Sequence record: NC_048170.1
Reading direction: 5' to 3' (one strand)
Origin: Escherichia phage vB_EcoM_Goslar
Length of the DNA: 64,000 nucleotides
This document shows positions 1 to 60,215 of this stretch, in pieces; positions within the stretch are counted from its first letter, which is position 1; the number at the start of each line of letters is the position of its first letter. Made by a program: the position numbers and the translations under genes. The notes under the pieces are model-generated. The model searched no databases, was not told the origin of the DNA, and was given only the letters and a program-made list of their open reading frames with translations.

Positions 1-1081
1 TACGCTGATCGCCAGTAAACGTGATCTTCGCTTTAAAGATCAAACCGAATAACGACGTCATGGGATCATACGCAATACAACCGTGATCCAGCGTATCCGT
101 TGTCCGCCATTCTATCCCGACCAACCCGTTAGCGGTATGGCATCGCATATACGCATTAAGGACCATGTCTTCACTGACAACCGCGAAGTTCTCTGTTGAC
201 TGACCGTTGATAATCCAATACATCGGTTGCCAGAGGTTACGCGTACCTTTTGCGTAGCGGTAGGTTGGTGCGCCTTTAGGGTTGCCATTATTGAGATGGA
301 ATACGGCAGTACCTTGATAATGGTCGTTCGTATTAATCGGAACACTGTAAGCATCACCGAGATCCGTACGTTCCACCTTCGTGACTGTTGCGTTTTCAAA
401 CAACCCACGTAGCGCCGGTAAACCGATATCTTCAGGTGCGTTTTCTCGACGAATCGCATCCGCGATGCGGTGGGCTAAGGCGGGGTAAATGGCCTCACCC
501 TGCTGTAGGTTTGCAAGACCTACAAAGCGATCGGGGTCGATGCCAGCAATCAATAACTCGACATCACCCTTCGTTCTATCGTCGTTAAGATATTTCAGTC
601 CGGTAAGGTCAAGATGCTGAATAAGCGACAACAGGTTGTATTTACGGTTTTCAACAGTTAGTACAAGATCGCCTGCCCAAACCAAACTTCCCTCATCCGC
701 TGTTACTTTAACGGATTGTCGGCCTGTGGTAGACGTTGTTGTCGTTTTATTTAATTGTCCTTGTAGGAAGTCGGTTGCGAGGTCAAAGGCAATGCCGTAA
801 CGGTCAGCGACCGCTTGCATGATTTCACGTAACTGGGTATCTTCTTCAATGATAATCTTGATAGGTATTCCCAAGAACGCTTTAGCGAGGTCTCGTTTAA
901 CCAACGAGACGAATACGGATTTGTAGTATCGGCTTCCATCTTTCCCTTTAAAAAGAATGGAGGTTGTTTCGGGTGCCGATAGAACACGTGCAAATTCAAC
1001 ATCGTCGAATGTAAGAGAAAGTCCGTTTTTCTCGTTGACCAATCTTAGTATTTCATTTTGCGCGGTTTCATGTAACTTCAT
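1..1081 (-). CDS. tail fiber / receptor-binding-like protein, partial (3' end beyond window); N-terminal module shared with 6868..7413 and 49134..50585
   Basis: Hand translation of minus strand from ATG at 1081..1079 (MKLHETAQNEILRLVNEKNGLSLTFDDVEF...VKRDLAKAFLGIPIKIIIEED...) checked codon by codon down to about position 360 with no stop and assumed open to position 1; absent from ORF track because no stop lies in the window; N-terminus aligns with the two paralogs. Confidence 0.6.
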   Translation of the reverse strand, partial: MKLHETAQNEILRLVNEKNGLSLTFDDVEFARVLSAPETTSILFKGKDGSRYYKSVFVSLVKRDLAKAFLGIPIKIIIEEDTQLREIMQAVADRYGIAFDLATDFLQGQLNKTTTTSTTGRQSVKVTADEGSLVWAGDLVLTVENRKYNLLSLIQHLDLTGLKYLNDDRTKGDVELLIAGIDPDRFVGLANLQQGEAIYPALAHRIADAIRRENAPEDIGLPALRGLFENATVTKVERTDLGDAYSVPINTNDHYQGTAVFHLNNGNPKGAPTYRYAKGTRNLWQPMYWIINGQSTENFAVVSEDMVLNAYMRCHTANGLVGIEWRTTDTLDHGCIAYDPMTSLFGLIFKAKITFTGDQR

Positions 1082-1914: not shown

Positions 1915-1922
1915 ATACTTAA

Positions 1923-2426: not shown

Positions 2427-2470
2427 CGTCGGATTTCCTTATGTGTTAACGGAAGTGATTTCCATAGTAA

Positions 2471-6861: not shown

Positions 6862-6867
6862 GGTGTT

Positions 6868-7413
6868 TTATCCTGGATAAATAGTGATGATATCACCAAT
6901 GACGGTTGTGGCACCGGCGTAAAGATGAGCCGGAGATACATCGTGTTGGTTTGTCACAGTAAGATCCAATCGACCACGCCAAACCACGGAGGTATTCGCG
7001 ATGGGGATAGAAATCTTTTTGGATATATCGTCACGAAAATCAATAACAGTGGCAAGGGTAACCGCATCAAAATCAACGTCGGGGTCAAAGACGAACCCGT
7101 ATTGATCTGAAATCGCCCGAATAATCGCATGTATAGTTGTTGTCTCGACGGACTCTAAAACGATTTTTACCGGTATTCCTAAAAATGCCTTCGCGATATC
7201 GCGTCGAGCGTAAACGATAAAACTTTCACCACACCACTTTGTTCCTTCATTTGCTGTGACGATCACTTTTGCCCTGTTAGCACCAGAACTCCCATCCAAG
7301 GTTAATGTAAGATCGGAGTTGCTGAACACGCTACCGTTACGTTGGTTTATCAACGTAATCAGTTCGTCTTTCCATGGCGGGTAAAGTGAACGCATAAGCG
7401 CACCCTCCTCCAA
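6868..7413 (-). CDS. tail fiber-associated protein (181 aa) consisting of the shared N-terminal module
   Basis: MRSLYPPWKDELITLINQRNG...RRDIAKAFLGIPVKIVLES...YGFVFDPDVDF aligns with N-termini of 1..1081 and 49134..50585 proteins; immediately upstream of fiber gene. Confidence 0.6.
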   Translation of the reverse strand: MEEGALMRSLYPPWKDELITLINQRNGSVFSNSDLTLTLDGSSGANRAKVIVTANEGTKWCGESFIVYARRDIAKAFLGIPVKIVLESVETTTIHAIIRAISDQYGFVFDPDVDFDAVTLATVIDFRDDISKKISIPIANTSVVWRGRLDLTVTNQHDVSPAHLYAGATTVIGDIITIYPG

Positions 7414-11210: not shown

Positions 11211-12041
11211 TTAATCGTAACTAAAATAAAGTTTGCTGCTGACGCCGCTATCGGAACGAGGTTTTAATACCAGAACAGAGCTTCCGAACGACGGAAGTAT
11301 TGGAACATCTAAATCGTTCGCATCGGCAACTTTTCCATTATAAACGACATTGGCTGTTGTGATGAGTTCCCAAGCTAAGGTATAACTCATTGAAATCAGC
11401 GACGAGGCTAAACGGAATGCGTTGTATCCTTCTGGAGTATCTCCAACCGACATCGAACGTATCGCATCTTGCGGCGGTAAATTTAGCTTGATGCCGTAGG
11501 TGCTGAATGTGTGGAAATCCCCTTGTTTACTATCTTCTGGATAATACGAGGTTAGCGGTTCTCGCACCGTAATCAGTTCGCTAATATCGGTACTTACATC
11601 TTTTCGTGCGAGGAATTGAAACGTACCGTGCCATGATGCCGACGCGTCAGAACGAACGGGAACAGATATGGTTTTCTCGCCGCTTTCAAATTTAACCTGT
11701 GACGCTAACGCTGAAGAATCAAAGATCGTTAAATCGATCTTCAACCCATACTTCTTAAACAGCTGCGTTAAGCAGTCTGCTATCGTCGTCTTATCAGCAA
11801 CGACAATAAAAGGTTGGTGTTTGATAAAGAGCTTATTAATGTCTCGACGTTGAAGATAAACCTGTACGGGGTCTTCGACGTAGTAAACCGATTGTGGTGC
11901 AGGGGCTATAGAAAGGCGTAACCGACCCGATGCACCATACCAGGCTGGCGTTAACGTAATGTCTGACAGGGACAACGGATGCTGGAGATAGGCGTTTATT
12001 TTAGATAACACTTCCTCCTGCCATGATGCTTCAGGATACAT
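11211..12041 (-). CDS. hypothetical protein (276 aa), tail-module associated
   Basis: ORF track; first gene after strong terminator at 12098..12161. Confidence 0.5.
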   Translation of the reverse strand: MYPEASWQEEVLSKINAYLQHPLSLSDITLTPAWYGASGRLRLSIAPAPQSVYYVEDPVQVYLQRRDINKLFIKHQPFIVVADKTTIADCLTQLFKKYGLKIDLTIFDSSALASQVKFESGEKTISVPVRSDASASWHGTFQFLARKDVSTDISELITVREPLTSYYPEDSKQGDFHTFSTYGIKLNLPPQDAIRSMSVGDTPEGYNAFRLASSLISMSYTLAWELITTANVVYNGKVADANDLDVPILPSFGSSVLVLKPRSDSGVSSKLYFSYD

Positions 12042-15918: not shown

Positions 15919-15934
15919 AACTTTTCCTGTTCGT

Positions 15935-17398: not shown

Positions 17399-17716
17399 TT
17401 AGTTTGCACGTAAGAAATGACCCAGAACCGTTACGATTGGAAACAGCCCCGTAACAGTATTATCACCCGAAAACATCATCATTGTTCCGTTAACGGTGAT
17501 GAAACGGATGTCGGTTGCGGACCCATCGATAGCGACAAAACGCATCGAGTTCGGTGGAAGGTCCTCAACCACTTCCACGAGGTACTCGCGATTATCAAAG
17601 GCTTCTTTAACACGACGCATGAAACGAATCAAGGTTCCTTCCGCGTCAGCTTCCAAATGACCTAAGATATCGCGATTATTACGAATAGCAAATACAGCCA
17701 TTTTAAACATACTCAT
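17399..17716 (-). CDS. hypothetical protein (105 aa)
   Basis: ORF track; preceded by conserved 20-nt motif. Confidence 0.45.
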   Translation of the reverse strand: MSMFKMAVFAIRNNRDILGHLEADAEGTLIRFMRRVKEAFDNREYLVEVVEDLPPNSMRFVAIDGSATDIRFITVNGTMMMFSGDNTVTGLFPIVTVLGHFLRAN

Positions 17717-17782: not shown

Positions 17783-17806
17783 CACCTAAGTAATATAGCC
17801 GTGAAA
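17783..17806 (-). promoter_or_regulatory. conserved 20-nt intergenic motif (copy 1), candidate promoter element
   Basis: taagtaatatagccgtgaaa at 17787..17806, identical to 46790..46809; both 45-70 nt upstream of a minus-strand start; minus-strand reading TTTCACGGCTATATTACTTA contains TATATT. Confidence 0.35.
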
Positions 17807-17824: not shown

Positions 17825-18778
17825 TCACGCTTTTGCTAAGTAGGGTTGGATCTCATTAATCCGTTTAACCACAACCTCAGGGAAAAGTTTGAGTATTTCA
17901 TCAGGTGGTATCGTACCTTCTGTCCAACGATAGCGTTCGACCATCTCGATGCGTGGACTCCCTCCGACATCAGCGATACGAAAGATACAGGCGATGCCTA
18001 AATCGAAGCATACGCTGTAAATATCTTCCGTACCTCCTTTATCAGCAAGTATTTTCGCAAAATGCTCGTTGTCAGGAAGAATGGCTAAATTACGGATACA
18101 CCAAACATTACTACCCATTTCTTCAAGTTTTGGGTAAGTTAAAGTGTGTCCGTATTGTGTTAACCATCGATGACTTTCGAGGTAGAAGTCCTTATCCCCT
18201 GGTCGATAACCCAATATCACTCCCGTGTAGAAGAGATTGGGCATATCGAGCAGTTCTCGAATCGTTGGGCCGGTATGCTCCCAGAGACAGATTTGTTTAC
18301 GGTCTATATCGTAATCTGTGACGTTACTCACCTCCCAACTTATCGTAAGTTCATCGGCAACACGCCAACCTAAAGCATGTTCGCCACCAAGCAGATTAAC
18401 AATGGCCGATATTTCATACTTGTCAAATACGCCTAAATTACGCGGTGGTTGCATCGTACGTAATGGCTCCCACAGCACACTGTAATCATAGAGCAAATGG
18501 CGACATAAACTTTTTGTTAGGGGTGTCTGTTCAGTGAAAAGTGGAAGAATCACCGTATCCAATAACGGGCGTAACGGATGATCGTTCGGTGGTAACGGGG
18601 CAGCCAGCCGACCTCCTTCTTTGGGGTAATCGAGACCAAACCCGTAACGCTCCGAAATAAGCGCAACCAGCACTTTTGCTACGCGGTTACGTAGCATGCG
18701 ATGGATATCATCACTGTAACTGAATTTCGGTTTATTTCCGCAAACGAAGGTGAAGTATCTAGGCGATAGCTTAACCAT
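17825..18778 (-). CDS. hypothetical protein (about 317 aa)
   Basis: ORF track 17825..18835; start moved to ATG 18778 (MVKLSPRYF) preceded by AAGGAAAAG and not overlapping upstream gene. Confidence 0.5.
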   Translation of the reverse strand: MVKLSPRYFTFVCGNKPKFSYSDDIHRMLRNRVAKVLVALISERYGFGLDYPKEGGRLAAPLPPNDHPLRPLLDTVILPLFTEQTPLTKSLCRHLLYDYSVLWEPLRTMQPPRNLGVFDKYEISAIVNLLGGEHALGWRVADELTISWEVSNVTDYDIDRKQICLWEHTGPTIRELLDMPNLFYTGVILGYRPGDKDFYLESHRWLTQYGHTLTYPKLEEMGSNVWCIRNLAILPDNEHFAKILADKGGTEDIYSVCFDLGIACIFRIADVGGSPRIEMVERYRWTEGTIPPDEILKLFPEVVVKRINEIQPYLAKA

Positions 18779-18788
18779 AGTCTTTTCC

Positions 18789-19235
18789 TTAATCCAGATA
18801 GTACGTGATGGATAGGTCTTTTCCATCGAATACAATATCCGTGCAGTCGTGGATGGTCGGTAATACCATTTTTGCTGCTATTGGGACGTATGCTTGCAAC
18901 TCCATGAAGTTATTCATACGGAACGCACGACGTACCATCAACGGCGTTAGTGTAAACGTTACGCTAACGTTACCGCTTGGGAGCAGGTGCATTATCGCAT
19001 GCCCGTGATCGCACCAGCAATGGTTTTCGATCCATCCGGTGTAAATCAGAATATCTTTATCTTCGTCGTAATAAGCAATACCGGTCTGCTTTAAGTGGCT
19101 GGTAAATCGAGAGGCTTGCTCGTAGCCTGCACGCAACATTCGAGCAACCAGTCGAGTATTGTTAGCGATTCGATTCTGTTCGTTGGTTTTTGTGGTTTTG
19201 AAAATTTCGATACGTTCTGCTTTTGTAATTTGCAT
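18789..19235 (-). CDS. hypothetical protein (148 aa)
   Basis: ORF track. Confidence 0.5.
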   Translation of the reverse strand: MQITKAERIEIFKTTKTNEQNRIANNTRLVARMLRAGYEQASRFTSHLKQTGIAYYDEDKDILIYTGWIENHCWCDHGHAIMHLLPSGNVSVTFTLTPLMVRRAFRMNNFMELQAYVPIAAKMVLPTIHDCTDIVFDGKDLSITYYLD

Positions 19236-38262: not shown

Positions 38263-38595
38263 TTACTGAAACAAGACATTAAATTCGACGAGATACCCAT
38301 CGGATCTATCACCACGATATCTGTTGCAGAAAACACCGAATTTCATCAAGAACGCACATAACTCTTCGGCTTTGTATAGCGGAATACGATTTTCGTCGAG
38401 CAGAGGGCACTTATGGCTAACCCGCTCCGACGAATCAACGCAACACAAATAAAGAAGGAACCGAACGATAGCCCGGTTCTTAGTGAAGCTCTCGAATTCA
38501 CCTGCAGTTCTGAACTCATCGAGGAGCTTTGTCGTTTTCTTCAATCGTTCACGATCAAGCATGTTAACCTCAACACGAACATAACCCTCCTCCAA
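38263..38595 (-). CDS. hypothetical protein (110 aa)
   Basis: ORF track. Confidence 0.4.
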   Translation of the reverse strand: MEEGYVRVEVNMLDRERLKKTTKLLDEFRTAGEFESFTKNRAIVRFLLYLCCVDSSERVSHKCPLLDENRIPLYKAEELCAFLMKFGVFCNRYRGDRSDGYLVEFNVLFQ

Positions 38596-38626
38596 CCCGT
38601 AAGGGAAGGAGGAGGTGATTATGCTG

Positions 38627-46057: not shown

Positions 46058-46744
46058 TTAACACATGATTTCACCATGTTTCTTTTCAACATACGTATAA
46101 ACGTCATCCAAATAAGCAATGAGTTTATCACGATCCGCACAGAGCGATTTAATCACCGCAATCTCTTTCATATAAAGCTGCTGACCTAACGCCGGATATG
46201 TAATCCACGCGTAGCCGTCAGGCGCAAATTTAGAAATAAGATAATCAGCGGTTTCCTGTAATGCGAACTCTTTACTCATCTGGCCGTAACGATGTTCGAT
46301 TGCGCGGATACCAAAACGTTCGCTATCGAGACGGCCCATATCTGCCAGACGAAGCACCTGAGAAGCAACCGAACTACGTGGACCAGAGTACGAGGCACGA
46401 TGTTCAGCAATAAGTACGCGTATCTCCTCGATGTCCTCCGGTGTGAAAATATGCTGCTCGTTACGAAGCAGGATAACCGACGCACGAATACCCCCGATAA
46501 GGTGGTGGTATGTTCTGTTTTCGTGGCAAGCGATATCATGCATAAAAGCAGCGGTTAATAGACGACGACGTTCCGTGGGTCTGATGATCCCAACCACATC
46601 AGCAAGTTCATTTGCCAGTTCAACAACAGCAAGCACATGTTCTTCTTGATGTGCAAGATCGTTCTTCCGAATATTTTCAATTACTTCGGTGCGTGTTTCC
46701 GGAGATAAGAAATTTAAACAATCCAACGAATATAAAGATTTCAT
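46058..46744 (-). CDS. HD-domain phosphohydrolase-like protein
   Basis: LAHQEEHVLAVVELANE ... AAFMHDIACHE (H...H...HD pattern). Confidence 0.55.
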   Translation of the reverse strand: MKSLYSLDCLNFLSPETRTEVIENIRKNDLAHQEEHVLAVVELANELADVVGIIRPTERRRLLTAAFMHDIACHENRTYHHLIGGIRASVILLRNEQHIFTPEDIEEIRVLIAEHRASYSGPRSSVASQVLRLADMGRLDSERFGIRAIEHRYGQMSKEFALQETADYLISKFAPDGYAWITYPALGQQLYMKEIAVIKSLCADRDKLIAYLDDVYTYVEKKHGEIMC

Positions 46745-46785
46745 CGCACGTACCTCTTTGAATCTATTAATAAATTTTCTTTACT

Positions 46786-46809
46786 CACGTAAGTAATATA
46801 GCCGTGAAA
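46786..46809 (-). promoter_or_regulatory. conserved 20-nt intergenic motif (copy 2), candidate promoter element
   Basis: taagtaatatagccgtgaaa at 46790..46809, identical to 17787..17806; about 45 nt upstream of start of 46058..46744. Confidence 0.35.
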
Positions 46810-46888
46810 GGATTTGTGTTGGTCCGTCTCGATGCCCATCGTATTTTATGGATTGTCGAATGACGTCATTTTAAGGGACATCCCCGGC

Positions 46889-46923
46889 CTCCTCCCCAGG
46901 AAAGGTGTGGGGAGGAGTTTTTA
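46889..46923 (+). promoter_or_regulatory. terminator-like hairpin plus T5 run on plus strand, upstream of helicase gene (possible attenuator or boundary element)
   Basis: ctcctcccc-aggaaaggtgt-ggggaggag followed by ttttt; lies in divergent intergenic region. Confidence 0.4.
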
Positions 46924-46952
46924 TCATACATTCTATTAAATCGAGCGCGATT

Positions 46953-49034
46953 ATGTTGGATAGAATCAATCGTTTAATGAACCGAATAACGGTTAAAAAT
47001 CAGAGTAACAATAGCGTGCATATCGGGGGTATCGATGCCTGGCGTCTTTCAGATGACATTCAGCGAATATGGGGTACCTCCCGATTTATGAAACATATGT
47101 TTCGTAATTTCTCTTCTAGTGGACTCAGTCTCCACAACTTTTACCTTCTCGATTTCGTTTATATTCTCGAAACGATCGTCGAAGCAAAGAATACCCGCAG
47201 TAATAAACGCATGCTGAAACACCTTATTGAGGTACTGCTGCAGGAAACCTGGTTGCAAAATACCACAATCGAGCAACCTGCAATCCTCGATAAAGCACGC
47301 ATGAACAAAATGCTAACGCTCTCCCTGTTCGATTATCAAGATGAGTTTATCGACATCTATAACCGTAACGTACCTAAATATCGACTGAAAGGATACGTGT
47401 GTGCGATGGGTGCGGGTGCTGGTAAAACAATCACCGCATTGGCTTTAAGCGCCGCAATGAACGTCGACGTATTTGTGGTCTGCTGTCCTAAGAACACCAT
47501 GCGTTCAGCATGGCAATCCGATGTAAACAAAGCCATCGTTGACCTCGCGACAGAAACCGCATTCTGGTCAGATACAATGCCACCATCACAGCTGCAGAAA
47601 AGCGATAAGTATTATTTTCTGCATTACGAGTCGATGGGTTTATTAAACGATGTAATGATCAAGCATAAACGCACCGCGAAGCGCGTGTTGATCGTGGTTG
47701 ATGAAAGCCATAACTTCAACGACAAGAACAGCCAACGTTCCCAACGACTGGTTGATCTCGTACAGACGATGCGTCAGACCATGAATGCGGATGTGCATGT
47801 CTTGTTTATGTCGGGTACGCCCGTTAAACAGATGGGTTCTGAGATGATCCCCTGTTTAGGTTGTATCGATCCGATGTTCCAAGGACAAGTGGTCGATAGC
47901 TTCAAAGCAATTTACGGTTTAACCAGCAGTCGCGCTAACGATATCCTCAGACATCGTCTTGGGTTCATGATGCATGTCGTACCTAAAGAGGCTTACCGTA
48001 AAACCCGTCCGGAAGTTCAGGATGTTTACGTGAAGCTTCCTAATGGTAGCGATTATACCATCTCGAGTATCCGCGACGACATGGCGATATTTGTACGCGA
48101 TCGGGCGAAGTATTACAAGGATAACTGGGGGCATTACAGAAAGATTTTTGATGACGCCTTGGACTACTATCGCAAGACTATTCGTACCGATGGTGAACGT
48201 AAAGAGCTATCTCGATACGAATCGATTGTTGCTCGTTTCCAGAAAGGTTACGACCCCGTCAGAGACAAAGAAGATGCGATGTTCTGCAACGTGTTTGAAA
48301 AACGAGCGATCATGCCGGTTCTTCCTTCTGATTTAAGGGTTGCTTTCAAAGACGCCAAGAGCGTCATCAAGTACGTTGGGTTGAAAATTCAGGGTGAAGC
48401 GTTGGCGCGTGTTCTAGGTGCAGCCCGCATTCGGTGTCATGTCGACATGGTGGAGTACATCGACTTCGAAGGGTACATCAACAACGCTGAAGCCAAGGTG
48501 TTGATCTTCACGTCGTACGTTCAGGTGGTTGAGCGCGTCGACAACATGCTTCGTGATGCGGGTTTCTTACCTGAACCCATTTACGGGAAGACCAACAAAA
48601 ACATCAACCAGATACTTGCTCGTCTACGCGATGATCCTGACAGCGGTCCCGCTATCGCAACATTTGATAGCTTAGCTGAAGGGGTTCCGATGCTGATGTG
48701 TAACGTCGGCCTTTTCCTGAACAATCCATGGCGCTCATCCGATGAAATCCAAGCCATCAGCCGTCTCGACCGTGTCGGGCAAACGCAGCCTGTTCGGATT
48801 TATCGTTTCATGTTGGATACAGGAAGCGAGGGTAACGTTTCTACACGTAGCCACGAAATCATGGAGTTAAGTCGACAGCTTGTTGAAGAAATCACGGGTG
48901 TCAAATATGTAGTGAACAAGCAAGACGATGTTAACTTGCAAGAAACGTTGGCGATGGAAGGATACGATCAATACGTTACCGTAAACACCACGGAATACGA
49001 TATTAAACCGCGACCTGCATTCTTGGAATGGTGA
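46953..49034 (+). CDS. SNF2-like superfamily II helicase/ATPase
   Basis: Walker A GAGAGKT, DESH box IVVDESHNF, SGTP motif, motif VI QAISRLDRVGQTQPVRIYRF; start placed at ATG 46953 (ORF track start 46905 is GTG inside hairpin). Confidence 0.75.
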   Translation: MLDRINRLMNRITVKNQSNNSVHIGGIDAWRLSDDIQRIWGTSRFMKHMFRNFSSSGLSLHNFYLLDFVYILETIVEAKNTRSNKRMLKHLIEVLLQETWLQNTTIEQPAILDKARMNKMLTLSLFDYQDEFIDIYNRNVPKYRLKGYVCAMGAGAGKTITALALSAAMNVDVFVVCCPKNTMRSAWQSDVNKAIVDLATETAFWSDTMPPSQLQKSDKYYFLHYESMGLLNDVMIKHKRTAKRVLIVVDESHNFNDKNSQRSQRLVDLVQTMRQTMNADVHVLFMSGTPVKQMGSEMIPCLGCIDPMFQGQVVDSFKAIYGLTSSRANDILRHRLGFMMHVVPKEAYRKTRPEVQDVYVKLPNGSDYTISSIRDDMAIFVRDRAKYYKDNWGHYRKIFDDALDYYRKTIRTDGERKELSRYESIVARFQKGYDPVRDKEDAMFCNVFEKRAIMPVLPSDLRVAFKDAKSVIKYVGLKIQGEALARVLGAARIRCHVDMVEYIDFEGYINNAEAKVLIFTSYVQVVERVDNMLRDAGFLPEPIYGKTNKNINQILARLRDDPDSGPAIATFDSLAEGVPMLMCNVGLFLNNPWRSSDEIQAISRLDRVGQTQPVRIYRFMLDTGSEGNVSTRSHEIMELSRQLVEEITGVKYVVNKQDDVNLQETLAMEGYDQYVTVNTTEYDIKPRPAFLEW

Positions 49035-49133
49035 TTAAGAAGCTCTGCCTGACATCAGGCAGAGCTTCATGCTGTATTTGTTGCAAGATCGTATGACGTA
49101 TATGCGTCGTACTTATTTAATAGGACAGAATAA

Positions 49134-50585
49134 ATGAAACTCAAACAAAGCTGGAAAGACGAACTCCTTGCGCTAGTAAACAGCAAAAACAGCTTACAAC
49201 TGACGTTAGACGATGTAAAATTTGAACTGACGGCACCGGTAAGCGAAGTGCCTGGAACGGTTGTTGTTACGATCAAACCGAACGACGATAGCCGTTACTT
49301 TAACGAGCAATCTCTGACCTACGTTCGTCGAGACATCGCTAAAAACTTCACCGGGATCCCGTTACGGGTTATCGTTAAAAATGATACCGCCGTAAGGGAT
49401 ATCATCAATACGATCGCTGAACGTTACGGATTAGTATTTGACACAACCGTCGACTTCCTCGAATCCGAGCTGAATAAACAAATTACGTTCGCAGACACCG
49501 GTATTAAAGACATTACGGTTCCGGTTGCAAACACGTCTTATGTTTGGGCGGGTAATCTTCAGTTCAATATCGCTAACGATACGTTGAGCTTGATTACGAT
49601 CATCAAGCAAACCAATCTTACGAATCTGGTTTATCTGGATGGTGTTGAAGCTGACACATCGGGTTCGTTACTATTAGCAACAACCTCGGTTATCGGCGAA
49701 AACGGAAATGCCGAAACAACTGAAGGTGTCCTTGACGCCGCGTACTTCCAGAATATCCTGAACGTCATGGTTCGTTATGGTGATATTAACAGCGAACAAA
49801 TGCAACAAGCAATGCAGACAATTAACCAAAGCGAAGACGCTCGTAGAGTAGAAGTGCGGTCATACGGTGACGCCGAGTTACTGGTAACCACCAAGAAAGA
49901 TTGGGTTATCGGTAGCCTTAAGGGTGCTATGGTTGTTGGTCACGCTTCACCTAAACCGATCCAATACGTTCTTAAAACAAAAGGCGGCACCATTATATTG
50001 TCATTAGATGGTTGGACAAATGTCAATATCGATTGGGGTGATGGGAATAAGACGACGCAGGACTCAGGCGATAATGAATATCAGCACAATTATGCTGACA
50101 CTACAGAACGTACAATCGTCGCTACGGGTACCCCTACCAACACTGAAGATACAGACGTACAGCAAAGCTTCACCGGTGGTAACATCACTGAAATCGTTGA
50201 CTGGAACAACGGATTACCTAAGGCCCCATCATTCCTTGCGGCGAACAGTTTAATTAAGGTTCCCGATTATATCCCGGCATATTGGACGTCGTTAGAAAGT
50301 ATGTTTACGCGATGCAGCGCTATTAACGACGTGAGCATCACCAAATGGAACACCCGCAACGTTACTTCAATGAAGGACCTCTTCTACGGTTGCGCTACGT
50401 TCAACCAACCGATCGGTTCGTGGGATGTTTCGTCTGTTAAGAATGCAGACAATATGTTGTCTGGGTGCTTCGCGTTCAATCAGGATCTGAGTGGTTGGAC
50501 ATTCCCGGCAGGCACTTCACACATCAACTACGACGGCATGACCGCCGCATGGCAGCCTGATCACAAACCACGCTTCACCGAGTAA
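49134..50585 (+). CDS. receptor-binding-like protein: shared N-terminal module plus C-terminal DUF285-like repeats
   Basis: N-terminus MKLKQSWKDELLALVNSKNS...RRDIAKNFTGIPLRVIVKND...YGLVFDTTVDF aligns with 6868..7413 and 1..1081; C-terminus WNTRNVTSMKDLFYGCATFNQPIGSWDVSSVKNADNMLSGCFAFNQDLSGW. Confidence 0.6.
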   Translation: MKLKQSWKDELLALVNSKNSLQLTLDDVKFELTAPVSEVPGTVVVTIKPNDDSRYFNEQSLTYVRRDIAKNFTGIPLRVIVKNDTAVRDIINTIAERYGLVFDTTVDFLESELNKQITFADTGIKDITVPVANTSYVWAGNLQFNIANDTLSLITIIKQTNLTNLVYLDGVEADTSGSLLLATTSVIGENGNAETTEGVLDAAYFQNILNVMVRYGDINSEQMQQAMQTINQSEDARRVEVRSYGDAELLVTTKKDWVIGSLKGAMVVGHASPKPIQYVLKTKGGTIILSLDGWTNVNIDWGDGNKTTQDSGDNEYQHNYADTTERTIVATGTPTNTEDTDVQQSFTGGNITEIVDWNNGLPKAPSFLAANSLIKVPDYIPAYWTSLESMFTRCSAINDVSITKWNTRNVTSMKDLFYGCATFNQPIGSWDVSSVKNADNMLSGCFAFNQDLSGWTFPAGTSHINYDGMTAAWQPDHKPRFTE

Positions 50586-50606
50586 AAAAAAAAATAGTTA
50601 GCATAT

Positions 50607-50645
50607 CTTCCTCCCTACCCATAACGGGCGGGGAGGAAGGTTTAT
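50607..50645 (+). terminator. terminator between convergent genes (near-perfect 14-bp stem, loop ataac, then GUUUAU)
   Basis: cttcctccctaccc-ataac-gggcggggaggaag then gtttat; follows stop of 49134..50585. Confidence 0.6.
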
Positions 50646-50656
50646 GACGATTTAAT

Positions 50657-50995
50657 TTAGAACCAGAGTTCTTTCATGAAGTAGGCTTCCACATCGTAGA
50701 TAAGCCATTCGTCAGGGATTTCTAAAGGATCGTCTTCGGTTAAGGTCAGCATGTGTAAGGCGAACGCACGCTTAATATCGTTCAGCAGTTTCTCGTCGTC
50801 GTAACCTTCTGGTAGTTTACGGTCTACCAGCTGGGTTTGTTTATAGACATCGCGGAACGCTTCAGGGTTGTGTTTATCCATCGGGAATTGTTCAGCAGCC
50901 TGAACCATCGAAAGCGTCCAGCTTACAACATTGTAACGCTCACCGTTAATTTCACTGAACTGATCATCGATTAAACAAATTTGTTGTACGTTCAT
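50657..50995 (-). CDS. hypothetical protein (112 aa)
   Basis: ORF track. Confidence 0.4.
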   Translation of the reverse strand: MNVQQICLIDDQFSEINGERYNVVSWTLSMVQAAEQFPMDKHNPEAFRDVYKQTQLVDRKLPEGYDDEKLLNDIKRAFALHMLTLTEDDPLEIPDEWLIYDVEAYFMKELWF

Positions 50996-51953: not shown

Positions 51954-53528
51954 TTACAATTCAAAATCTTCATCGATAACACGCTGGGTAAGCACCTTGT
52001 CGCTGAAGAACTCCACCTTGCGCTGATGGTATTTACGGTGCGCTTCGATAGATGTACATACCAGATACCAGAACGTTGGTGTCATTCCTTCGAACTTCCC
52101 TTTCAGCTGACGTAGGCGTCCCAATACCTGAATGTTACCGGTTCGTGACCCCATCGCTAACGTCATGAACGTCATCACCAAGTCAGGGAGGTCGATACCT
52201 GTACCTGCCGATTTCACCGTCGTAACGCTGATATCGTTATCCAACAAGACCATGAAATCTTCTTCAGCAGTATAAGGACCAATCTCTAACTCAGGAATAC
52301 GTTCACTGAGATAATGCGATAACGACTTACACATATCAACGGTTGCACAATACACCAGCATCTTCATGCCTTCCTGATACTGGTTCATGAAACCTTTGAT
52401 GATAACGGTATAGATAAAGTTGAAATAGGCGAGTTTGAGTTGCTTGTTCTTCATGATAGACTGTTCGAATATCGTGTGAGAATAAGAACCCCCAAAGCCT
52501 TTGTATCTGACTTTATCTGTACTGCGTAATCGATACGTTACCGCATTTACCGCAATGTATTTCTTGTATTCGCATTTCGCATAACGTGCTTCTTTCGGAT
52601 ACATCAAATACAACATCCGTTCGATGAACGGATCGTCGGACACTGCCGTTGCTGACAGATAGATGATTTCCGGAATATTCGCGTAACACTTCACTTTGAA
52701 CAAGAAATGCAATGCTTCGTGACATTCATCATGGATTAACAACCCAATGCCTGTTTTCTCCCAGAACTCGACAGGATGGAAAACATAAGGTGCGACACAG
52801 TTGTTCTTTTCATAATCGGTTATGTATCTCTGAAACATGTTCAGCGAGAATAACGCAATTTTGAAATCCAGCTCACCTTGTTCCACCAACGTCTGGAATT
52901 CCAGCATGCTGTAACGAGGAATGTCTGGATGTGGTGGGTCAGATTGAGCTGTGCCACGTATCTCGATAACATCGCCCGGTTCCATACCGAAGAAACTTAG
53001 CAGTGAGCTACGCCAACCAGGCATGTATCTCGGTGACAGGATAATACCCGTCCGTACACCGCGTCGGAAGGTGATCTCCTGCGACATGGCTGTTTTACCA
53101 GACCCCGTGCCTGCGGTGTTTAAGCTCATTCTGAAGGGGGTATCCTTACCCCCGTCCATGTACTCCAACCATTCTTGTTGATCTTCACGCCACGGAAACT
53201 TCCATTTCTTTACGAACTCCACTTCCTTACCTGGCACTGGATCGTGATAAACGATTTCCAACCACTCTTTTCGGATTCCTCGAGAGAAGATAAAATCCAA
53301 AAACGATTTCAACTGTTCGCGGAGTAAGTATACCTCGCTATAATCGCTTCTCGCTGCGGCATACGTGTTTATGGTATCGGTAACCATTCTCCGTGTACGA
53401 GGGTCACGCCGTTTCCTCAGATGCAAACAACGGTCTCGAAGGTAATGGCCGATAAGATGGGCAAATCGAAGTCCGTATCCGCTCAGCCTCATGCCATGCG
53501 AGAAGACGTCGATACGAGCTAACTTCAT
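51954..53528 (-). CDS. superfamily II DExH-box helicase
   Basis: Motif I GTGSGKT, motif II LIHDECHE, motif III LSATAV, motif V AGTGIDLPD, motif VI QVLGRLRQ. Confidence 0.65.
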   Translation of the reverse strand: MKLARIDVFSHGMRLSGYGLRFAHLIGHYLRDRCLHLRKRRDPRTRRMVTDTINTYAAARSDYSEVYLLREQLKSFLDFIFSRGIRKEWLEIVYHDPVPGKEVEFVKKWKFPWREDQQEWLEYMDGGKDTPFRMSLNTAGTGSGKTAMSQEITFRRGVRTGIILSPRYMPGWRSSLLSFFGMEPGDVIEIRGTAQSDPPHPDIPRYSMLEFQTLVEQGELDFKIALFSLNMFQRYITDYEKNNCVAPYVFHPVEFWEKTGIGLLIHDECHEALHFLFKVKCYANIPEIIYLSATAVSDDPFIERMLYLMYPKEARYAKCEYKKYIAVNAVTYRLRSTDKVRYKGFGGSYSHTIFEQSIMKNKQLKLAYFNFIYTVIIKGFMNQYQEGMKMLVYCATVDMCKSLSHYLSERIPELEIGPYTAEEDFMVLLDNDISVTTVKSAGTGIDLPDLVMTFMTLAMGSRTGNIQVLGRLRQLKGKFEGMTPTFWYLVCTSIEAHRKYHQRKVEFFSDKVLTQRVIDEDFEL

Positions 53529-55531
53529 AACGTGATTACATCCTCCGGTTTAGGTTCTTTACGCGGTAAAAGCATGTAGTCGATCGGATGATCCGGCTTC
53601 ATGGTTGGGATATAACTGTTCGGGTTTTGGAACGCATCCAGTTGCTCTTGGTGAGCGAACTTCATACTCAAGGAGCGCATGTTCATGTTCTTCTTGAAGG
53701 TACTGAAGTATCGTGTTGTTCCCTGTTTCGGCATGCGATAATCTTTCGTGTGTGGTGAACGAATCATGCTGGCGTAGAGAATAACATCGAGATGCGAAAG
53801 GTTCATTCGCAGACGCTGGGCACACAGACGATGCCAATAGTACAGCACGTTTGCAACTTCTTCCGGTGTCGCTTCGTCTTCCGAAAGGAATCCGGCACTG
53901 AAAGAACCTTTCCCGAATTTGAATTCACGTTCGATTTCTTTTGCGTATTCCATCATGTTTTTGTGGATTAACGGCATCTGGAATAACGTACGTGAATTGT
54001 CCCAATGTTTCAAGTCGAAAATCACAATCCCGTCAGACGTCACTTCCCAGCTATGGCGTTTAAGATAACGGATAAACGCTTTACTCGGGACAACGGGACG
54101 TCCACAGAAATCGAAATTGACTTTGAGCTTACGGTAGCTTTCATCTTTCCTGTCGTAAATCTCCATATCACAAAGCGTCATGTTAAACAGGCGTTGCGGT
54201 ATCAGCGAACTGATTTCTTCCGCTTCCGCTACATCGTACAACATGTTCGCAAGACCTAACTTCATCTTAATCAGCACGTGTTTACCTTTCAGCTCACGTG
54301 CGAGTTTGATGTCGTTCATATTCTGGCTGTAGCGAAGGATATGTTGATATTCCGGTGGGATTGGTGCTGTGGATACCGTTGACGAACCATCATGGTGTTT
54401 GGTAGAAAGAATGTTCTGCGTTACCTGTTGCGAACAGGTACGCGCTGCGCCATCGCCGACATTATCGGTTAGTGCGAAGTTATGACTTAATTCACCGTAA
54501 CACGTCGTACATACCCCAGCAGGATCGGGATGATGACAATAGTTAACGGAGCGCATACGCACTGTGGTGCCGATCAATTCTTTCATGTGTGGTTGTATCG
54601 CTACCAACGAACCGTCATCGCGAATAATGAATCGACCGTGGAAGCCACGCAGGTCGGTCTCATCACGGATTGGCATCGGGATGGTCTCTTTACTACCACA
54701 ATCTCCAGGATGGAGTCGTTGTACAACCGCTGTCGCTATCTGAAGTTCACGACCGAAATATTCAGACTTCTTGATCTGCTCTTTGTTGAACAGCAACGAC
54801 TTCGCCGCAGAACGACTTTCTTTCAAGCTGTCGGGAAGAGAGATCAAACCTGCCGCGTACGACCGCATTACTGGATCACGGAATATCTCGGAGTTAATAT
54901 CGGTCAAGAATCCACGCATCCCAATACACTGCAGCACCTGCCCAATCGAAACGTGTTCGGTTCGTACCGCACGCGCAATAGGGTTTGCGTGTAACGTTTT
55001 ATCGGTGCTCAGTACCTTGGTCAGTTTCTTGTATGCGCTTTCGATACCTTCACGGGTGGGTTCCGCTTCGGCGATGATTTTCTTAACTTCAGGATGTACG
55101 GTAATCTGATAAAAATCATCCGCGCAAATAGTCGTTACGTATTCCTCCAGCGCATACGTAAAGAAGTTATATACATTGTTAAACATATCGAACAATGCTT
55201 TCCAGAGAACCTCACGATTCTCTTGTGGATAAGCATACATGCATTGACGATACGCGGCGCTTTGCAACGCAACCGACGAACCAGCAGTAAACTTGCGTTT
55301 ATCGACCAGGTTCTCTTTTGTCAATGGTGTCTCAGGATACATGCGATGCACAGACCAGTGCATGTAACTAAAGAAAATGCGTCGCGCACGCAATTCATGA
55401 ACGCCATCGTCCATCTCGATATATACACGGTCATTAGGCTGTGCCCACTCGAATACTTCATCAACCGGCCAGTGCATAAGCTCGCGTGCCCTCACACGAC
55501 GTTTCGTGGTGGTCGTCTGTGTTATAGTCAT
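53525..55531 (-). CDS. multisubunit RNA polymerase beta-prime-like protein (C-terminal half homolog)
   Basis: VRMRSVNYCHHPDPAGVCTTCYGEL...AARTCSQQVTQNILSTKHHDG parallels E. coli beta-prime [22 protein letters not shown]...[22 protein letters not shown]; upstream IGQVLQCIGMRGFL parallels LNVLQYFISTHGAR; no NADFDGD motif, consistent with a split subunit. Confidence 0.55.
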   Translation of the reverse strand: MTITQTTTTKRRVRARELMHWPVDEVFEWAQPNDRVYIEMDDGVHELRARRIFFSYMHWSVHRMYPETPLTKENLVDKRKFTAGSSVALQSAAYRQCMYAYPQENREVLWKALFDMFNNVYNFFTYALEEYVTTICADDFYQITVHPEVKKIIAEAEPTREGIESAYKKLTKVLSTDKTLHANPIARAVRTEHVSIGQVLQCIGMRGFLTDINSEIFRDPVMRSYAAGLISLPDSLKESRSAAKSLLFNKEQIKKSEYFGRELQIATAVVQRLHPGDCGSKETIPMPIRDETDLRGFHGRFIIRDDGSLVAIQPHMKELIGTTVRMRSVNYCHHPDPAGVCTTCYGELSHNFALTDNVGDGAARTCSQQVTQNILSTKHHDGSSTVSTAPIPPEYQHILRYSQNMNDIKLARELKGKHVLIKMKLGLANMLYDVAEAEEISSLIPQRLFNMTLCDMEIYDRKDESYRKLKVNFDFCGRPVVPSKAFIRYLKRHSWEVTSDGIVIFDLKHWDNSRTLFQMPLIHKNMMEYAKEIEREFKFGKGSFSAGFLSEDEATPEEVANVLYYWHRLCAQRLRMNLSHLDVILYASMIRSPHTKDYRMPKQGTTRYFSTFKKNMNMRSLSMKFAHQEQLDAFQNPNSYIPTMKPDHPIDYMLLPRKEPKPEDVITL

Positions 55532-57596: not shown

Positions 57597-59765
57597 TTAG
57601 CTTTCGCAGTCATCTGCGTCGATGATTTGTCCGCCAGCAACGTTCAGCTGATGATACAGAATCCTCAACGCACGGTTGCCACCAATGGGATACTTCTCGA
57701 AGTTGGTTGCAATAGGAATCGCTGACGGCTTATCGGTCGCATAGATACTTTCAGTGATGCTATCCACCTGTTTTGGATTGTTCGCATAATCCATAAAGAC
57801 GCTTGCGAACCATCCGCCAGCAAAGGCGGTAACTTCGCGATGTTCAGATTCGCCACAGTAACGAGTTGGTTGCTCTTTACCCGGAGAACTGTATTTATCG
57901 CTATTACTGAGTTTCGACGGTAATCCATGCGCTTGCAATTTAGGAATACCCACAGCCGACCAATCGTTCGCCGTCTTCTCCAACATCATGATGTACGTGT
58001 CACCGATCGCAATATCGTTCTTGGTTGTCCGCCACTGCCCAGAACGCCCACGGTATCGTACAGGACCTTTCTTCAACGGGAACTCACGAATCAGATTCTC
58101 CATACGTTCTGAACCTGCTGCGATACTGTCCGTCGGGATATAAACTTCCGTACCGTGGCGTTGTACATACCGTAAATGATCCCATTTATCCTCATCCGTG
58201 ATACAGTATTTTTCAACAACCTGTTCCACGAATTCAGGACTGACGATATAGTAGTAACGCATTAGTGTGTTCCAAGCGGTCTCCAGATCGCCTGCATCCA
58301 TCACTGGTTTCAGTTCACGCATGATCTGATCGCCAACACCGTTGATGTAAGGTGCATTAACACGACTTAAACTCATCCTTTTGATTACCGTGCTATCGTC
58401 AAACATAAAGTCTGCAACGTTACCCCATTGGTCAACCGGCATCTCATCATCTTCCATGATGTCGGTTACGACGAATTTATCACCCGCCATACCAGTGAAT
58501 TTAAACCCGATACCTGGAACAACGTCGTACGTGTACGTGATGGTCACACGCCAATCATCGAGATTCTCTTTGCGGTAATCGCGGGTCGGTAACACATGAC
58601 GTAGCTGTCCATTAGGATTGCGGATATCAATACCATGTTCAGCATCAGCCAGGTTCAACCACCACATCACCGTTTGATGATGACGTATCGGCGTACCAAC
58701 GCGTTCACGTTCATACTTACGAACAGCATCCTGAATTCGGGTGTAAAGCAAACCGATTGCGTTCTCGTATTTCAGGAATTGACGATACGGAGGACGCATC
58801 TTCTCTTCCATCATAATCGCACGCTCGCGGGCTTGACGTCCAGAACGACGATGCCGGTCGCTGACAACATCGATATCCGTTACACGCGCATTCGGTTCAG
58901 CGTAAGTGAGGTCATCGTAAACATAATCCACACGCTGAAGATTACACGTCATCATGTCAACAACGCTGAGGATAGGATCTATTTCGCGTGTTGCTGCAAG
59001 TAACCCATCTTTACGAATACGCTCACCGTTCTCGGGTATTGCTTGATATACCTCATCATCGCCGTAGAGATTGATTGGGTATCGCGATTTACCTGATGTG
59101 ATTGTTCGCTTCTCAATGCCGGTACTGGTGAAATGTTTCAATACACCACGACGGGCAACACCACCATCCTCGATACACTGATAGAAGCTACCGAAACACA
59201 CTTTACAATCGCGACCGTAACCCCACTCGCGTGTTTCTTGATTGATCGCTGGGCTTTCCATCAAACGAGAATATCGCGGTACGATCTGGCCTCGACGGAG
59301 GGAATGGAACAAGTTGGTTGGTCGAAAACGGAAACCGTACTGCTGATGCATGATGTGATGCTCAGGCACTTCAAGCAAGCGTAGTTCGTGGCGGTTACCA
59401 TCCTCTTGGTTTTCATACAGCACGTAATGCATCGTGTTTGTTTTGATGCTGTTTGCTGTATGCCCCGGTTGGAAACGTGGGATGATATCTATGATGCGAG
59501 ATTCGACTGGAAACTCTACTGACCAAGTGTTCTGTCCGTACTGGTATTCAATCCCCGTCGTTAGTCGGGACGGTTTCGCATCTTTGATAACCAACGCTTG
59601 GCTAAGATGTCCACCAAACATCGCAGCGCGCTGTGCTGAGTTATAATGCAATAGCCCGTTAAGTCCAGTCCCTACGCCAGTATACTCCTGTTTAATGGGA
59701 ATGATTTTACCTTCAGCGATTGCCTGCTTCACAGATTCATAAAGAGGTTTTTCTTTATAATGCAT
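57597..59765 (-). CDS. multisubunit RNA polymerase beta-like protein (C-terminal half homolog)
   Basis: FKFTGMAGDKFVVTDIMEDDEMPVDQWGNVADFMFDDSTVIKRMSLSRV parallels E. coli beta [47 protein letters not shown]; also YIMMLEK versus YMYMLKL and a C-terminal segment parallel to GQRFGEMEVWALEAYGA; start placed at ATG 59765 preceded by AGGAAG (ORF track 57597..59930). Confidence 0.6.
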   Translation of the reverse strand: MHYKEKPLYESVKQAIAEGKIIPIKQEYTGVGTGLNGLLHYNSAQRAAMFGGHLSQALVIKDAKPSRLTTGIEYQYGQNTWSVEFPVESRIIDIIPRFQPGHTANSIKTNTMHYVLYENQEDGNRHELRLLEVPEHHIMHQQYGFRFRPTNLFHSLRRGQIVPRYSRLMESPAINQETREWGYGRDCKVCFGSFYQCIEDGGVARRGVLKHFTSTGIEKRTITSGKSRYPINLYGDDEVYQAIPENGERIRKDGLLAATREIDPILSVVDMMTCNLQRVDYVYDDLTYAEPNARVTDIDVVSDRHRRSGRQARERAIMMEEKMRPPYRQFLKYENAIGLLYTRIQDAVRKYERERVGTPIRHHQTVMWWLNLADAEHGIDIRNPNGQLRHVLPTRDYRKENLDDWRVTITYTYDVVPGIGFKFTGMAGDKFVVTDIMEDDEMPVDQWGNVADFMFDDSTVIKRMSLSRVNAPYINGVGDQIMRELKPVMDAGDLETAWNTLMRYYYIVSPEFVEQVVEKYCITDEDKWDHLRYVQRHGTEVYIPTDSIAAGSERMENLIREFPLKKGPVRYRGRSGQWRTTKNDIAIGDTYIMMLEKTANDWSAVGIPKLQAHGLPSKLSNSDKYSSPGKEQPTRYCGESEHREVTAFAGGWFASVFMDYANNPKQVDSITESIYATDKPSAIPIATNFEKYPIGGNRALRILYHQLNVAGGQIIDADDCES

Positions 59766-59796
59766 AGGACTTCCTATTATCGAATTGAGGTACGTC

Positions 59797-60150
59797 ATGT
59801 CTAACACGCCCCTGAACGACTTTCTTAAGACAAACCCCGATGACCTCATCCACGATCTTGATTTCAGGAACGTTGTTGAGATGCATCTGGAATATTTCAA
59901 AAATGCCGGACTGGTCTCTACGATAGACATACCACCCGAACGCGCCTACGAATTCGATGGTAACTTTTATGGATTGTGTCGTGTTCTGCTCGGCGAGGGT
60001 AGCGAACCAATGCACTGGATCACCCTGAGACTCAATGGTTATCGCGACCCTACGGAATACACCGCCGATGTTCTAACCATGAAGATTGTCGATACAAGCG
60101 CAATCAACACATTAAAACAACAGTACCGCACAATCCACTACAGCGCTTAA
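59797..60150 (+). CDS. hypothetical protein (117 aa), lone plus-strand gene
   Basis: ORF track 59785..60150; ATG 59797 preceded by GAGG; followed by hairpin. Confidence 0.4.
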   Translation: MSNTPLNDFLKTNPDDLIHDLDFRNVVEMHLEYFKNAGLVSTIDIPPERAYEFDGNFYGLCRVLLGEGSEPMHWITLRLNGYRDPTEYTADVLTMKIVDTSAINTLKQQYRTIHYSA

Positions 60151-60155
60151 GATAA

Positions 60156-60190
60156 CCCTCCCGCAACGTAAGGCGTAGGGAGGGCATTTA
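60156..60190 (+). terminator. hairpin CCCTCCC-15 nt loop-GGGAGGG then cattt, between convergent genes
   Basis: Inverted repeat read directly. Confidence 0.45.
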
Positions 60191-60215
60191 TGCCGTCGTT
60201 CGATGACTTAATACA

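Follow-up and report, generated by a model that had tools for sequence, protein, structure and literature searches.

A helicase-headed plus-strand gene pair in Escherichia phage vB_EcoM_Goslar and its counterparts in phiKZ-like jumbo phages

A 64,000-nucleotide stretch of the genome of Escherichia phage vB_EcoM_Goslar (NC_048170.1; "the window" hereafter) is laid out mainly on the minus strand, with a small plus-strand island near 47–50.6 kb. The island consists of two genes: one for a helicase, and one for a protein that joins a DUF7941 domain to leucine-rich repeats (LRRs). An earlier note on this DNA had suggested that such an island might be a separately regulated or a horizontally acquired module. 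Our analysis favors the following account of its origin: with a probability of roughly 0.7, the island is an ancestral, conserved, separately transcribed virion-gene unit of phiKZ-like jumbo phages, and not an acquired module. The layout described in that note was borne out. In a greedy, non-overlapping set of 80 open reading frames (ORFs) of at least 80 aa, the only plus-strand members are 46905/46953..49034 and 49134..50585, which form the sole multi-gene plus-strand run of the window. Strong hairpins bracket the two genes on both sides, as had been noted, and also lie between them, and the isolated 117-aa plus-strand gene to the right is also real (see below).

A conserved opposite-strand unit headed by a helicase gene

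The first island gene encodes an SF2/SNF2-type helicase. Its product matches the Pfam families ResIII (6.5e-12), DEAD (4.2e-7), SNF2-rel_dom (7.9e-7), and Helicase_C (7.3e-7), all above cut-offs, and the PHROG family phrog_62 (1.9e-87). The ATG at 46953 is taken as the start codon because orthologue alignments open at residue 1 and agree with the coding-sequence start annotated in phage Eowyn. Matches to the protein were present in 203 jumbo-phage records, at one place in each, with identities of 29–39%; all but three (200/203) cover at least 80% of the query. They include Pseudomonas phiKZ-like phages and phages of Erwinia, Vibrio, Aeromonas, Serratia, and Klebsiella, and they fall on RAY_131, PhiPA3 gene 233, and EL gp166. 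The annotation of PhiPA3 gp233 in turn links that protein to phiKZ gp203 and EL gp166. Judged by these matches, the helicase is the single-copy orthologue of the virion-packaged proteins phiKZ gp203, RAY gp131, PhiPA3 gp233, and EL gp166. SPN3US "gp203" was considered as a further counterpart and rejected: it is an unrelated tail protein. RAY gp131 and PhiPA3 gp233 localize with capsids or phage bouquets (PMC12676376; RAY preprint), and phiKZ gp203 undergoes proteolytic processing, is packaged into the head, and co-pellets with the DNA packaged there (PMC10643120). By analogy with these orthologues, the window's helicase may also be processed and packaged into the capsid.

The same helicase is found at 99% protein identity in a 237.5-kb IMG/VR contig (IMGVR_UViG_3300011560_000001), and seven metagenome contigs (6.8–249 kb) carry it at 94–99% identity. 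Protein-level searches were needed for these comparisons; at the nucleotide level, a megablast search with the island found no match among 50,697 phage records. Several orthologues (L010 at 5482–8616, SL2, PhiPA3, EL, PDCC-1, and others) bear a LAGLIDADG-type insertion (PF14528) after approximately residue 150, which is probably an intein or a homing endonuclease. These interrupted helicases are 900–1050 aa long and are often annotated as "DarB-like antirestriction"; unlike the L010 gene, the window's gene is uninterrupted.

Synteny was surveyed in 19 of about 200 genomes. Three of these, the uncultivated relatives L007 (a 255.6-kb contig, GCA_034286695.1), L009, and L010, are collinear with the window, and their helicases are 58–61% identical to that of the island. 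The shared order is Metallophos, 160-aa, and HD genes on the minus strand; helicase and DUF7941/DUF285 genes on the plus strand; then 112-aa, 306-aa, SF2, and RNA polymerase (RNAP) genes on the minus strand. Identities to the L007 proteins are 51% for Metallophos, 40% for HD, 58% for the helicase, 30% for DUF7941, 49% for the 306-aa protein, 65% for SF2, and 72% for RNAP. The three relatives also share with the window an early-promoter motif, a TTTTATGG..TGTCGAATGA block, a leader hairpin with a U-tract, and a bidirectional hairpin at the right junction. They differ from it in the number of DUF7941 genes, two rather than one. At the right end of its island, L007 (14060–18651) has an extra 871-aa DUF7941/DUF285 gene and three additional minus-strand genes (230, 231, and 120 aa); the convergent junction thus looks like a hot spot of gene gain and loss.

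The arrangement extends to distant genera. Counting the window, the helicase gene diverges from its upstream neighbor in 16 of the 19 genomes, and in 12 it heads a fully delimited opposite-strand unit of one to three genes. The helicase stands alone in Proteus phage 10, pTD1, SA002, and Miami; it leads two-gene units in the window, RAY, EL, and ZPAH34, and three-gene units in L007, Eowyn, Noxifer, and the phiKZ-like phage MKR2. The 19 genomes do not all represent separate lineages, L007 and L010 being closely related. The MKR2 unit comprises the helicase and two genes annotated "virion structural", and the Eowyn unit includes a DUF7941 gene. In phiKZ gp203–gp201 (seen in vB_PaePA10145phi1_MKR2), RAY gp131–gp130, and EL gp166–gp165, the orthologous virion helicase comes first in a unit of two to three genes that runs opposite to both flanks, and the genes that follow are annotated as virion structural or hypothetical. 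A long spacer upstream of these units holds the early-promoter core TATATTAC, pointing away. The units also differ from the island: their helicases are just 31–35% identical to that of the window, and the cargo genes that follow are not homologous by Pfam, with no DUF7941 in phiKZ gp201/202. The flanks differ as well, being HD/metallophosphatase on the left and non-virion RNAP/SF2 on the right in the window, whereas those of phiKZ-type phages include RNase H and DprA. In the accessible part of the literature, we found no statement of a conserved divergent placement for the virion helicase.

The composition of the island is typical of the window. Its GC content is 0.459, vs. 0.457 ± 0.019 for same-size segments, and 78% of such segments lie farther than it does from the window mean in strand-symmetric tetranucleotide distance. 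Under a codon model trained on the minus-strand genes of the window, the two island genes score 0.27 and 0.30, within one standard deviation of the general value (0.22 ± 0.11). The sign of the coding-strand GC skew simply follows the strand, and no replication-type switch is visible at the island in cumulative GC skew. Related phages have the same arrangement, and there is no compositional break with the flanks in GC, tetranucleotides, or codon usage; this is the combination that the earlier note itself had named as a refutation. Together with the recurrence of the unit in distant genera, these results give no support to the suggestion that the island was horizontally acquired.

Features of the island and related elements, with positions in the window
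Feature	Position	Strand	Basis or description
phiKZ-type early (virion RNAP) promoter-like motif, TTTCACGGCTATATTACTTACGTG on minus strand	46786..46809	-	consensus match, conservation
Conserved leader upstream of helicase gene	46840..46918	+	invariant block, low variability, ends in terminator-type hairpin
Leader hairpin, CUCCUCCCCA / UGGGGAGGAG then UUUUU	46889..46922	+	10-bp stem (46889-46917), 9-nt loop
SF2/SNF2-type helicase, 693 aa	46953..49034	+	Pfam, PHROG, orthology
Intercistronic hairpin, 13-bp perfect stem, 4-nt loop, tail TCATGCTGT	49039..49075 (stem-loop 49039-49068)	+	-26.7 kcal/mol, z = -5.7
Second, small intercistronic hairpin, then TTATTTAATA	49091-49112	+	generic terminator scan
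DUF7941 (N-terminal) + DUF285/BspA-like LRR (C-terminal) protein, 483 aa	49134..50585	+	Pfam, PHROG
Bidirectional terminator-type hairpin	50605..50646 (hairpin 50605-50641)	both	convergent junction with minus-strand gene 50657..50995
Second plus-strand unit	59797..60192	+	117-aa gene (59797..60150), then plus-oriented hairpin 60155-60184, tail CATTTATGCCGT
Hairpin-TTATG(C/T)(C/T)G tails	14467, 16249, 21668, 28501, 34933, 36983, 38586-38626, 44969, 57130, 60188		

Promoter motif, leader, and hairpins at the island borders

The left border of the island contains a motif that resembles the early promoters of phiKZ. It lies approximately 42–50 nt upstream of the HD gene start (46744), is co-oriented with that gene, and points away from the island. 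The motif holds the core TATATTAC, and its layout (TTT, 6 nt, core, 4 nt, GTG) matches the consensus table, where the early promoters of 201phi2-1, OBP, and N1M2 are built in this way; published cores are TATATTAC for phiKZ, TTTRARR_BTATATTACDWHDGTG for 201phi2-1, and TTTCARRYAKATATTATYWAAGTG for N1M2/OBP (PMC7058600). An identical 18-mer is present twice in the window (17787-17804 and 46790-46807), where 0.02 occurrences would be expected by chance, and four times in the 237-kb genome, always on the same strand. The motif is conserved in L007, L009, and L010, and the TATATTAC core also occurs in MKR2, LucasX, and Phabio, in the spacer upstream of the helicase gene. We considered the 18-mer, read as TAAGTAATATAGCCGTGA, as a plus-strand promoter of the island and rejected it: the reverse complement fits the published early consensus and the starts of minus-strand genes. 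No plus-oriented TATATTAC is present. A scan for sigma-70 promoters yielded 14 matches vs. 16.5 expected, and host-type promoters are thus not indicated. From its sequence and position, the motif is a putative early promoter directed away from the island. The other copy in the window (17787-17804) lies between minus-strand genes 17825..18835 and 17399..17716, about 75 nt upstream of the latter, and implies a short early operon among structural genes.

Conservation between this motif and the helicase gene is uneven. In an alignment of eight close relatives, the variable columns number 1 of 32 across the early promoter (46784-46815), 11 of 24 in the adjoining spacer (46816-46839), 3 of 80 in the leader (two of these form a compensatory pair), and 9 of 34 between the leader hairpin and the ATG (46919-46952). 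The contrast between the leader and the adjacent intergenic stretches (3/80 vs. 20/58) is significant (Fisher p = 2.5e-6). Within the leader, a block running from ATTTTATGG to TGTCGAATGA (46843-46863) is invariant across three lineages with diverged flanks, as the alignment with L007, L009, and L010 shows. This block includes TATG at 46847-46850; TATG is the late-promoter motif of phiKZ, with G as +1 (PMC7598289, PMC4666361). A small leader peptide was rejected as the explanation for the conservation, since the reading frame of the block differs between lineages. The 5' part of the leader has no consistent secondary structure across lineages, and Rfam searches gave nothing at the gathering threshold in the whole window or at E ≤ 1 in 46740-46960. 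A metagenome scan for the block returned 21 loci: 14 were chance matches without a helicase gene, and the seven true ones belong to close relatives (94–99% identity). A perfect 10-bp palindrome, ATGACGTCAT, occupies 46859-46868; it is invariant among close relatives and absent from L007 and L009.

The leader ends in a hairpin (-21.7 kcal/mol) that lies approximately 40 nt on from the invariant block and 34 nt before the ATG, with a U-tract on the plus strand only. In the close relative L042, one A-U pair of the stem is replaced by G-C, a compensatory change. The stems of the three collinear genomes have other sequences; in L007 and L009, a hairpin and U-tract stand at the same leader position although the stem sequences are unrelated, so that the structure is conserved across three lineages. 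LucasX has a similar upstream hairpin with a TTTATGCCG tail. If transcription began at the G of the TATG and ended at this hairpin, a short leader RNA of about 73 nt (46850 to ~46922) is predicted.

The other two borders of the island genes are also marked by hairpins. Downstream of the helicase stop codon, a strong hairpin is found not only in the window but also in L007, L009, and L010. The hairpin at the convergent right junction is followed by GTTTATGACG on the plus strand and by ATATGCTA and then T11 on the minus strand, with fold energies of -29.4 kcal/mol (z = -5.9) and -26.2 kcal/mol (z = -4.7), respectively. It shares 74% identity with the leader hairpin across its 3' half (family D4), and the L007 junction has a bidirectional counterpart whose two strands both carry TTATG tails.

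These elements belong to a family that spans the window. Eleven intergenic hairpins with fold energies of -16 kcal/mol or lower are directly followed by T[TAC]ATGYYG. Eight of them, in minus orientation, separate minus-strand genes; tails in plus orientation are found at 49067 (between the island genes), 60188 (behind the 117-aa gene), and 38619, where the element is two-sided. The leader and junction hairpins belong here as tail variants. Since the family is window-wide and its orientation tracks the local genes, the hairpins that bracket the island are ordinary punctuation and not a special mark. The elements at 38.6 kb and 50.6 kb have such tails on both strands. A generic terminator scan gave no excess of hits, with 9 found and 9.1 expected, and missed the island hairpins because their loops exceed 8 nt or their tails are atypical.

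Experimentally mapped terminators of phiKZ carry the conserved motif BCCYCCCCHWWDGGGRRGGBYTTATKYYGT (Putzeys et al. 2024, PMC10914365). Arms of the CCYCCCC/GGGRRGG type are present in the leader hairpin and in the junction hairpin (CUUCCUCCC.../...GGGGAGGAAG); the stem of the intercistronic hairpin is unrelated to them in sequence. The tails of the three, TTTTTATCATAC (from 46918), TCATGCTGT (from 49067), and GTTTATGACG (from 50640), each match TTAT(K)YYGT in part; the leader hairpin tail, TTTTTATC, departs from the TTATKYYGT of phiKZ. The likeness extends to placement: in phiKZ, bidirectional terminators have been mapped between convergent genes (PMC10914365), and in phiKZ and 201phi2-1, terminators in 5' untranslated regions (5'UTRs) yield short RNAs (~71–141 nt) or permit read-through (PMC10914365, PMC11512511). 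The leaders of PHIKZ221 and PHIKZ302 give rise to such premature-termination small RNAs. As in the window, the phiKZ and 201phi2-1 elements are conserved by genomic location; they were mapped by experiment, whereas those of the window are predicted. A small RNA upstream of the helicase gene was not confirmed in the accessible part of the phiKZ and 201phi2-1 literature. Because the TTATG tail contains the TATG late-promoter motif, each "terminator" could double as a late transcription start, and in chimalliviruses generally, hairpin-TTATG elements could couple a terminator with a late promoter in one cassette.

The DUF7941 gene and the rest of the window

The second island gene encodes a protein with DUF7941 (PF25613, E = 1.1e-24) at residues 4-186 and DUF285, a BspA-type LRR domain (E = 4.5e-22), at residues 385-456. 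Its relatives are annotated "BspA family leucine-rich repeat surface protein", and its PHROG matches (phrog_1037 and phrog_2935) are annotated "virion structural protein". According to a preprint on phage Goslar (10.64898/2026.04.21.720040), DUF7941 is a chimallivirus-specific and very abundant virion family; its members are proposed to extend as filaments from the periphery of the baseplate and to recognize the host through LRR or carbohydrate-binding domains. In long members of the family, the host-recognition domain is C-terminal and of the carbohydrate-binding, hydrolase, or LRR type. The 483-aa protein resembles these "fiber cloud" proteins in having an N-terminal DUF7941 followed by an LRR-type domain, and in being one of multiple paralogues per genome, some of which lie beside tail-fiber genes. 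Its C-terminal domain, DUF285 (BspA-like), sets it apart; and while virion association was reported and filament formation proposed for the fiber-cloud proteins, the assignment of the 483-aa protein comes from its sequence. By this likeness, it is a probable baseplate fiber-cloud component involved in host recognition. Placement of a DUF7941 gene behind the virion helicase is specific to the window's clade and also occurs in Eowyn. With 30% identity to its L007 orthologue, the gene is the fastest-evolving of the syntenic block.

Three more DUF7941 genes, all on the minus strand, are present in the window (<=1..1081, 6868..7413, and 11211..12041), and their products are 40%, 37%, and 32% identical to the 483-aa protein. 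Giant ORFs, of 1324 aa and 1198 aa, lie directly downstream of the latter two, and one of these ORFs bears a tail-fiber N-terminal domain, suggesting that the pairs are fiber modules of an adaptor and a distal protein. The label "RBP paralog" that the earlier note gave to the island gene is fair on this evidence, for the gene combines DUF7941 with DUF285 and its paralogues adjoin genes of the tail-fiber type. The gene at <=1..1081 is cut by the window edge and is therefore missing from the ORF list; two low-scoring ORFs that are in the list, 112..459 and 751..1002, were rejected as its spurious shadows. The stretch 1250-6900 corresponds to the 1324-aa tail-fiber gene (Phage_tail_fib N-terminal domain, fiber repeat, Gly_rich_2). 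It is the most deviant part of the window, with a GC content of ~0.51 (up to 0.545) and the largest tetranucleotide distance, and is a better candidate for recent exchange than the island.

To the left of the island, the minus strand carries genes for an HD phosphohydrolase, a 160-aa protein, and a metallophosphatase. To its right is an operon with non-virion RNAP subunits and a second SF2 helicase (51954..53528), which belongs to a different family (phrog_16) and adjoins the RNAP genes. The multisubunit-type RNAP beta subunits are encoded at 53525..55531 (phrog_3015) and 57597..59765 (phrog_3295). The helicase matches, together with the RNAP, SF2 helicase, tail-fiber, and DUF7941 genes, identify the window, on gene content, as part of a phiKZ-like, chimallivirus-type (nucleus-forming) jumbo phage.

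The 117-aa plus-strand gene is real: its codon score (0.20) is the best among the six frames, it has a GAGG Shine-Dalgarno sequence, it matches phrog_3455 (E = 5e-21), and a plus-oriented hairpin directly follows it. The RNAP beta-type ORF on the opposite strand nominally spans 57597..59930 (777 aa). Its stretch at 59797-59930 scores -0.25, however, and the gene therefore probably starts at 59765, where an ATG is preceded by an AGGAAG Shine-Dalgarno sequence; this start leaves a divergent spacer of 31 bp to the 117-aa gene. No further convincing plus-strand genes were found in the window, although a few small ORFs at 15.0–16.5 kb are ambiguous. That region (15006-16530) amounts to some 1.5 kb with short, low-scoring ORFs on both strands and no convincing one; it holds the hairpin-TTATG element at 16249 and has no Rfam match. 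No tRNAs were found in the window.

Proposed transcription, competing explanations, and implications

How might the island be expressed? The anatomy described above would place it at a seam: an early operon would start at its left border, and the operon of the non-virion RNAP and SF2 genes would end at the bidirectional hairpin shared with its right border. The left operon (HD phosphohydrolase, 160-aa protein, and metallophosphatase) would be served by the phiKZ-type early promoter. With the island on the other strand, read-through from the neighboring early and middle operons cannot express the virion genes. These genes could instead follow their own schedule, which we infer to be middle or late, with transcription by the phage's non-virion RNAP. 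Transcripts probably start at the conserved TTTTATGG (TATG, with G as +1 at 46850); the leader hairpin and its U5 tract would then either stop them, yielding the short RNA, or allow read-through into the helicase gene. The intercistronic hairpin may modulate the ratio of helicase to fiber protein. The "separately regulated" proposal of the earlier note is thus supported in terms of sequence anatomy (plus-oriented terminator-type hairpins of its own, a conserved leader, and an early motif that fires away). A further step, which we offer only tentatively, is that the ~80-nt leader (46840-46918) may act as a riboregulator of the helicase unit and that, if the hairpin-TTATG elements are such cassettes, the opposite-strand placement of the packaged helicase beside an outward-firing early promoter would be a family-wide insulation design.

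Several observations weigh against the reading of the island as a conserved, separately transcribed unit. Three of the 19 genomes (FLC9, PhiPA3, and BONAISHI) lack the divergent arrangement, which is therefore not obligatory. Obvious late genes, those for tail fibers, are found on the minus strand of the window too, so the temporal class does not follow from strand alone. Covariation of the leader hairpin within the clade amounts to one event, and 77 of 500 shuffles reach it. TATG is short, with ~0.8 chance occurrences expected in such a spacer, and is too short to serve as evidence alone; in addition, seven relatives have a proximal TATG 25–48 nt before the ATG, where the window has TATC. Finally, ATTTTAT is found at a similar spacing from the core in two other copies of the early promoter (G_L012/L011 and L013), so that the conserved block could belong, as an upstream element, to the early promoter that diverges from the island.

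This last point leads to an alternative that we consider rather unlikely, yet the best of those weighed: the block belongs to the early promoter, the leader hairpin is a plain insulating terminator that stops stray antisense transcription from the left, and neither leader RNA nor attenuation exists, the helicase promoter being elsewhere (e.g., in 46918-46952). Terminators in antisense orientation, 9% of all, have been documented along with antisense transcripts in phiKZ and the phages studied with it (PMC10914365, PMC11512511), and L007 and LucasX have a TATG directly after the hairpin (TTTATGCCG), from which the helicase transcript could start. The window and L009, on the other hand, have no TATG downstream of the hairpin. 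Moreover, the TGTCGAATGA part of the block, invariant in three lineages, is present only in helicase-linked copies, and the entire 80-nt segment up to the hairpin behaves as a single conserved unit, in contrast to the 34 nt from hairpin to ATG, in which 26% of columns vary.

An improbable explanation, ranked below that of a conserved transcription unit, is that the orientation is a neutral relic of an ancient inversion, kept because rearrangements are rare and devoid of regulatory meaning. The genomes in which the helicase is co-oriented with its upstream genes are evidently viable, and phiKZ gp203 proved non-essential in transposon mutagenesis (PMC10643120). But the genes around the helicase vary widely between genera, so rearrangements are frequent there; despite this, the divergent orientation and the spacer with its outward early promoter recur, and the cargo behind the helicase changes while being repeatedly annotated as virion structural.

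Least credible is a horizontally acquired, moron-like cassette with its own promoter and terminators: the hairpin-bracketed, opposite-strand layout, the variable copy number of the DUF7941/DUF285 gene (one in the window, two each in L007 and L009), its divergence (the greatest of the block), and the presence of DUF285 repeats in many unrelated phages and bacteria would fit it, but the composition is typical, the hairpins are of the genome's ordinary terminator type, the deviant stretch lies at 1.2–6.9 kb, DUF7941 is reported to be chimallivirus-specific (10.64898/2026.04.21.720040), and the helicase is single-copy in every matching record and keeps its position and orientation from the window's clade to phiKZ, EL, and the Vibrio/Aeromonas phages. 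Nor is presence patchy: both gene types occupy the same position in L007, L009, and L010, and the helicase is family-wide. For the helicase, acquisition is largely refuted.

All components of the conserved unit are of described kinds, namely a gp203-family helicase, DUF7941 fiber proteins, phiKZ-type early promoters, terminators, and 5'UTR terminators; what is new is only their co-occurrence in a distant lineage. The arrangement of the island is ordinary genome architecture, and it counsels caution: in phiKZ-like jumbo phages, hairpin-bracketed runs of genes on the opposite strand are normal conserved units and not signs of gene transfer. The comparison also indicates that the phiKZ early-promoter core, the CCYCCCC/GGGRRGG-TTATG terminators, and terminators in 5' leaders are conserved far beyond the Pseudomonas phages. 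The DUF7941-LRR gene behind the helicase is a fast-evolving candidate for host recognition. In front of the packaged helicase of the phiKZ gp203 family, which is still enigmatic, the analysis locates a specific leader element; were the riboregulator proposal true, a late, TATG-initiated transcript would give rise either to an abundant small RNA of ~73 nt or to conditional read-through into the helicase gene.

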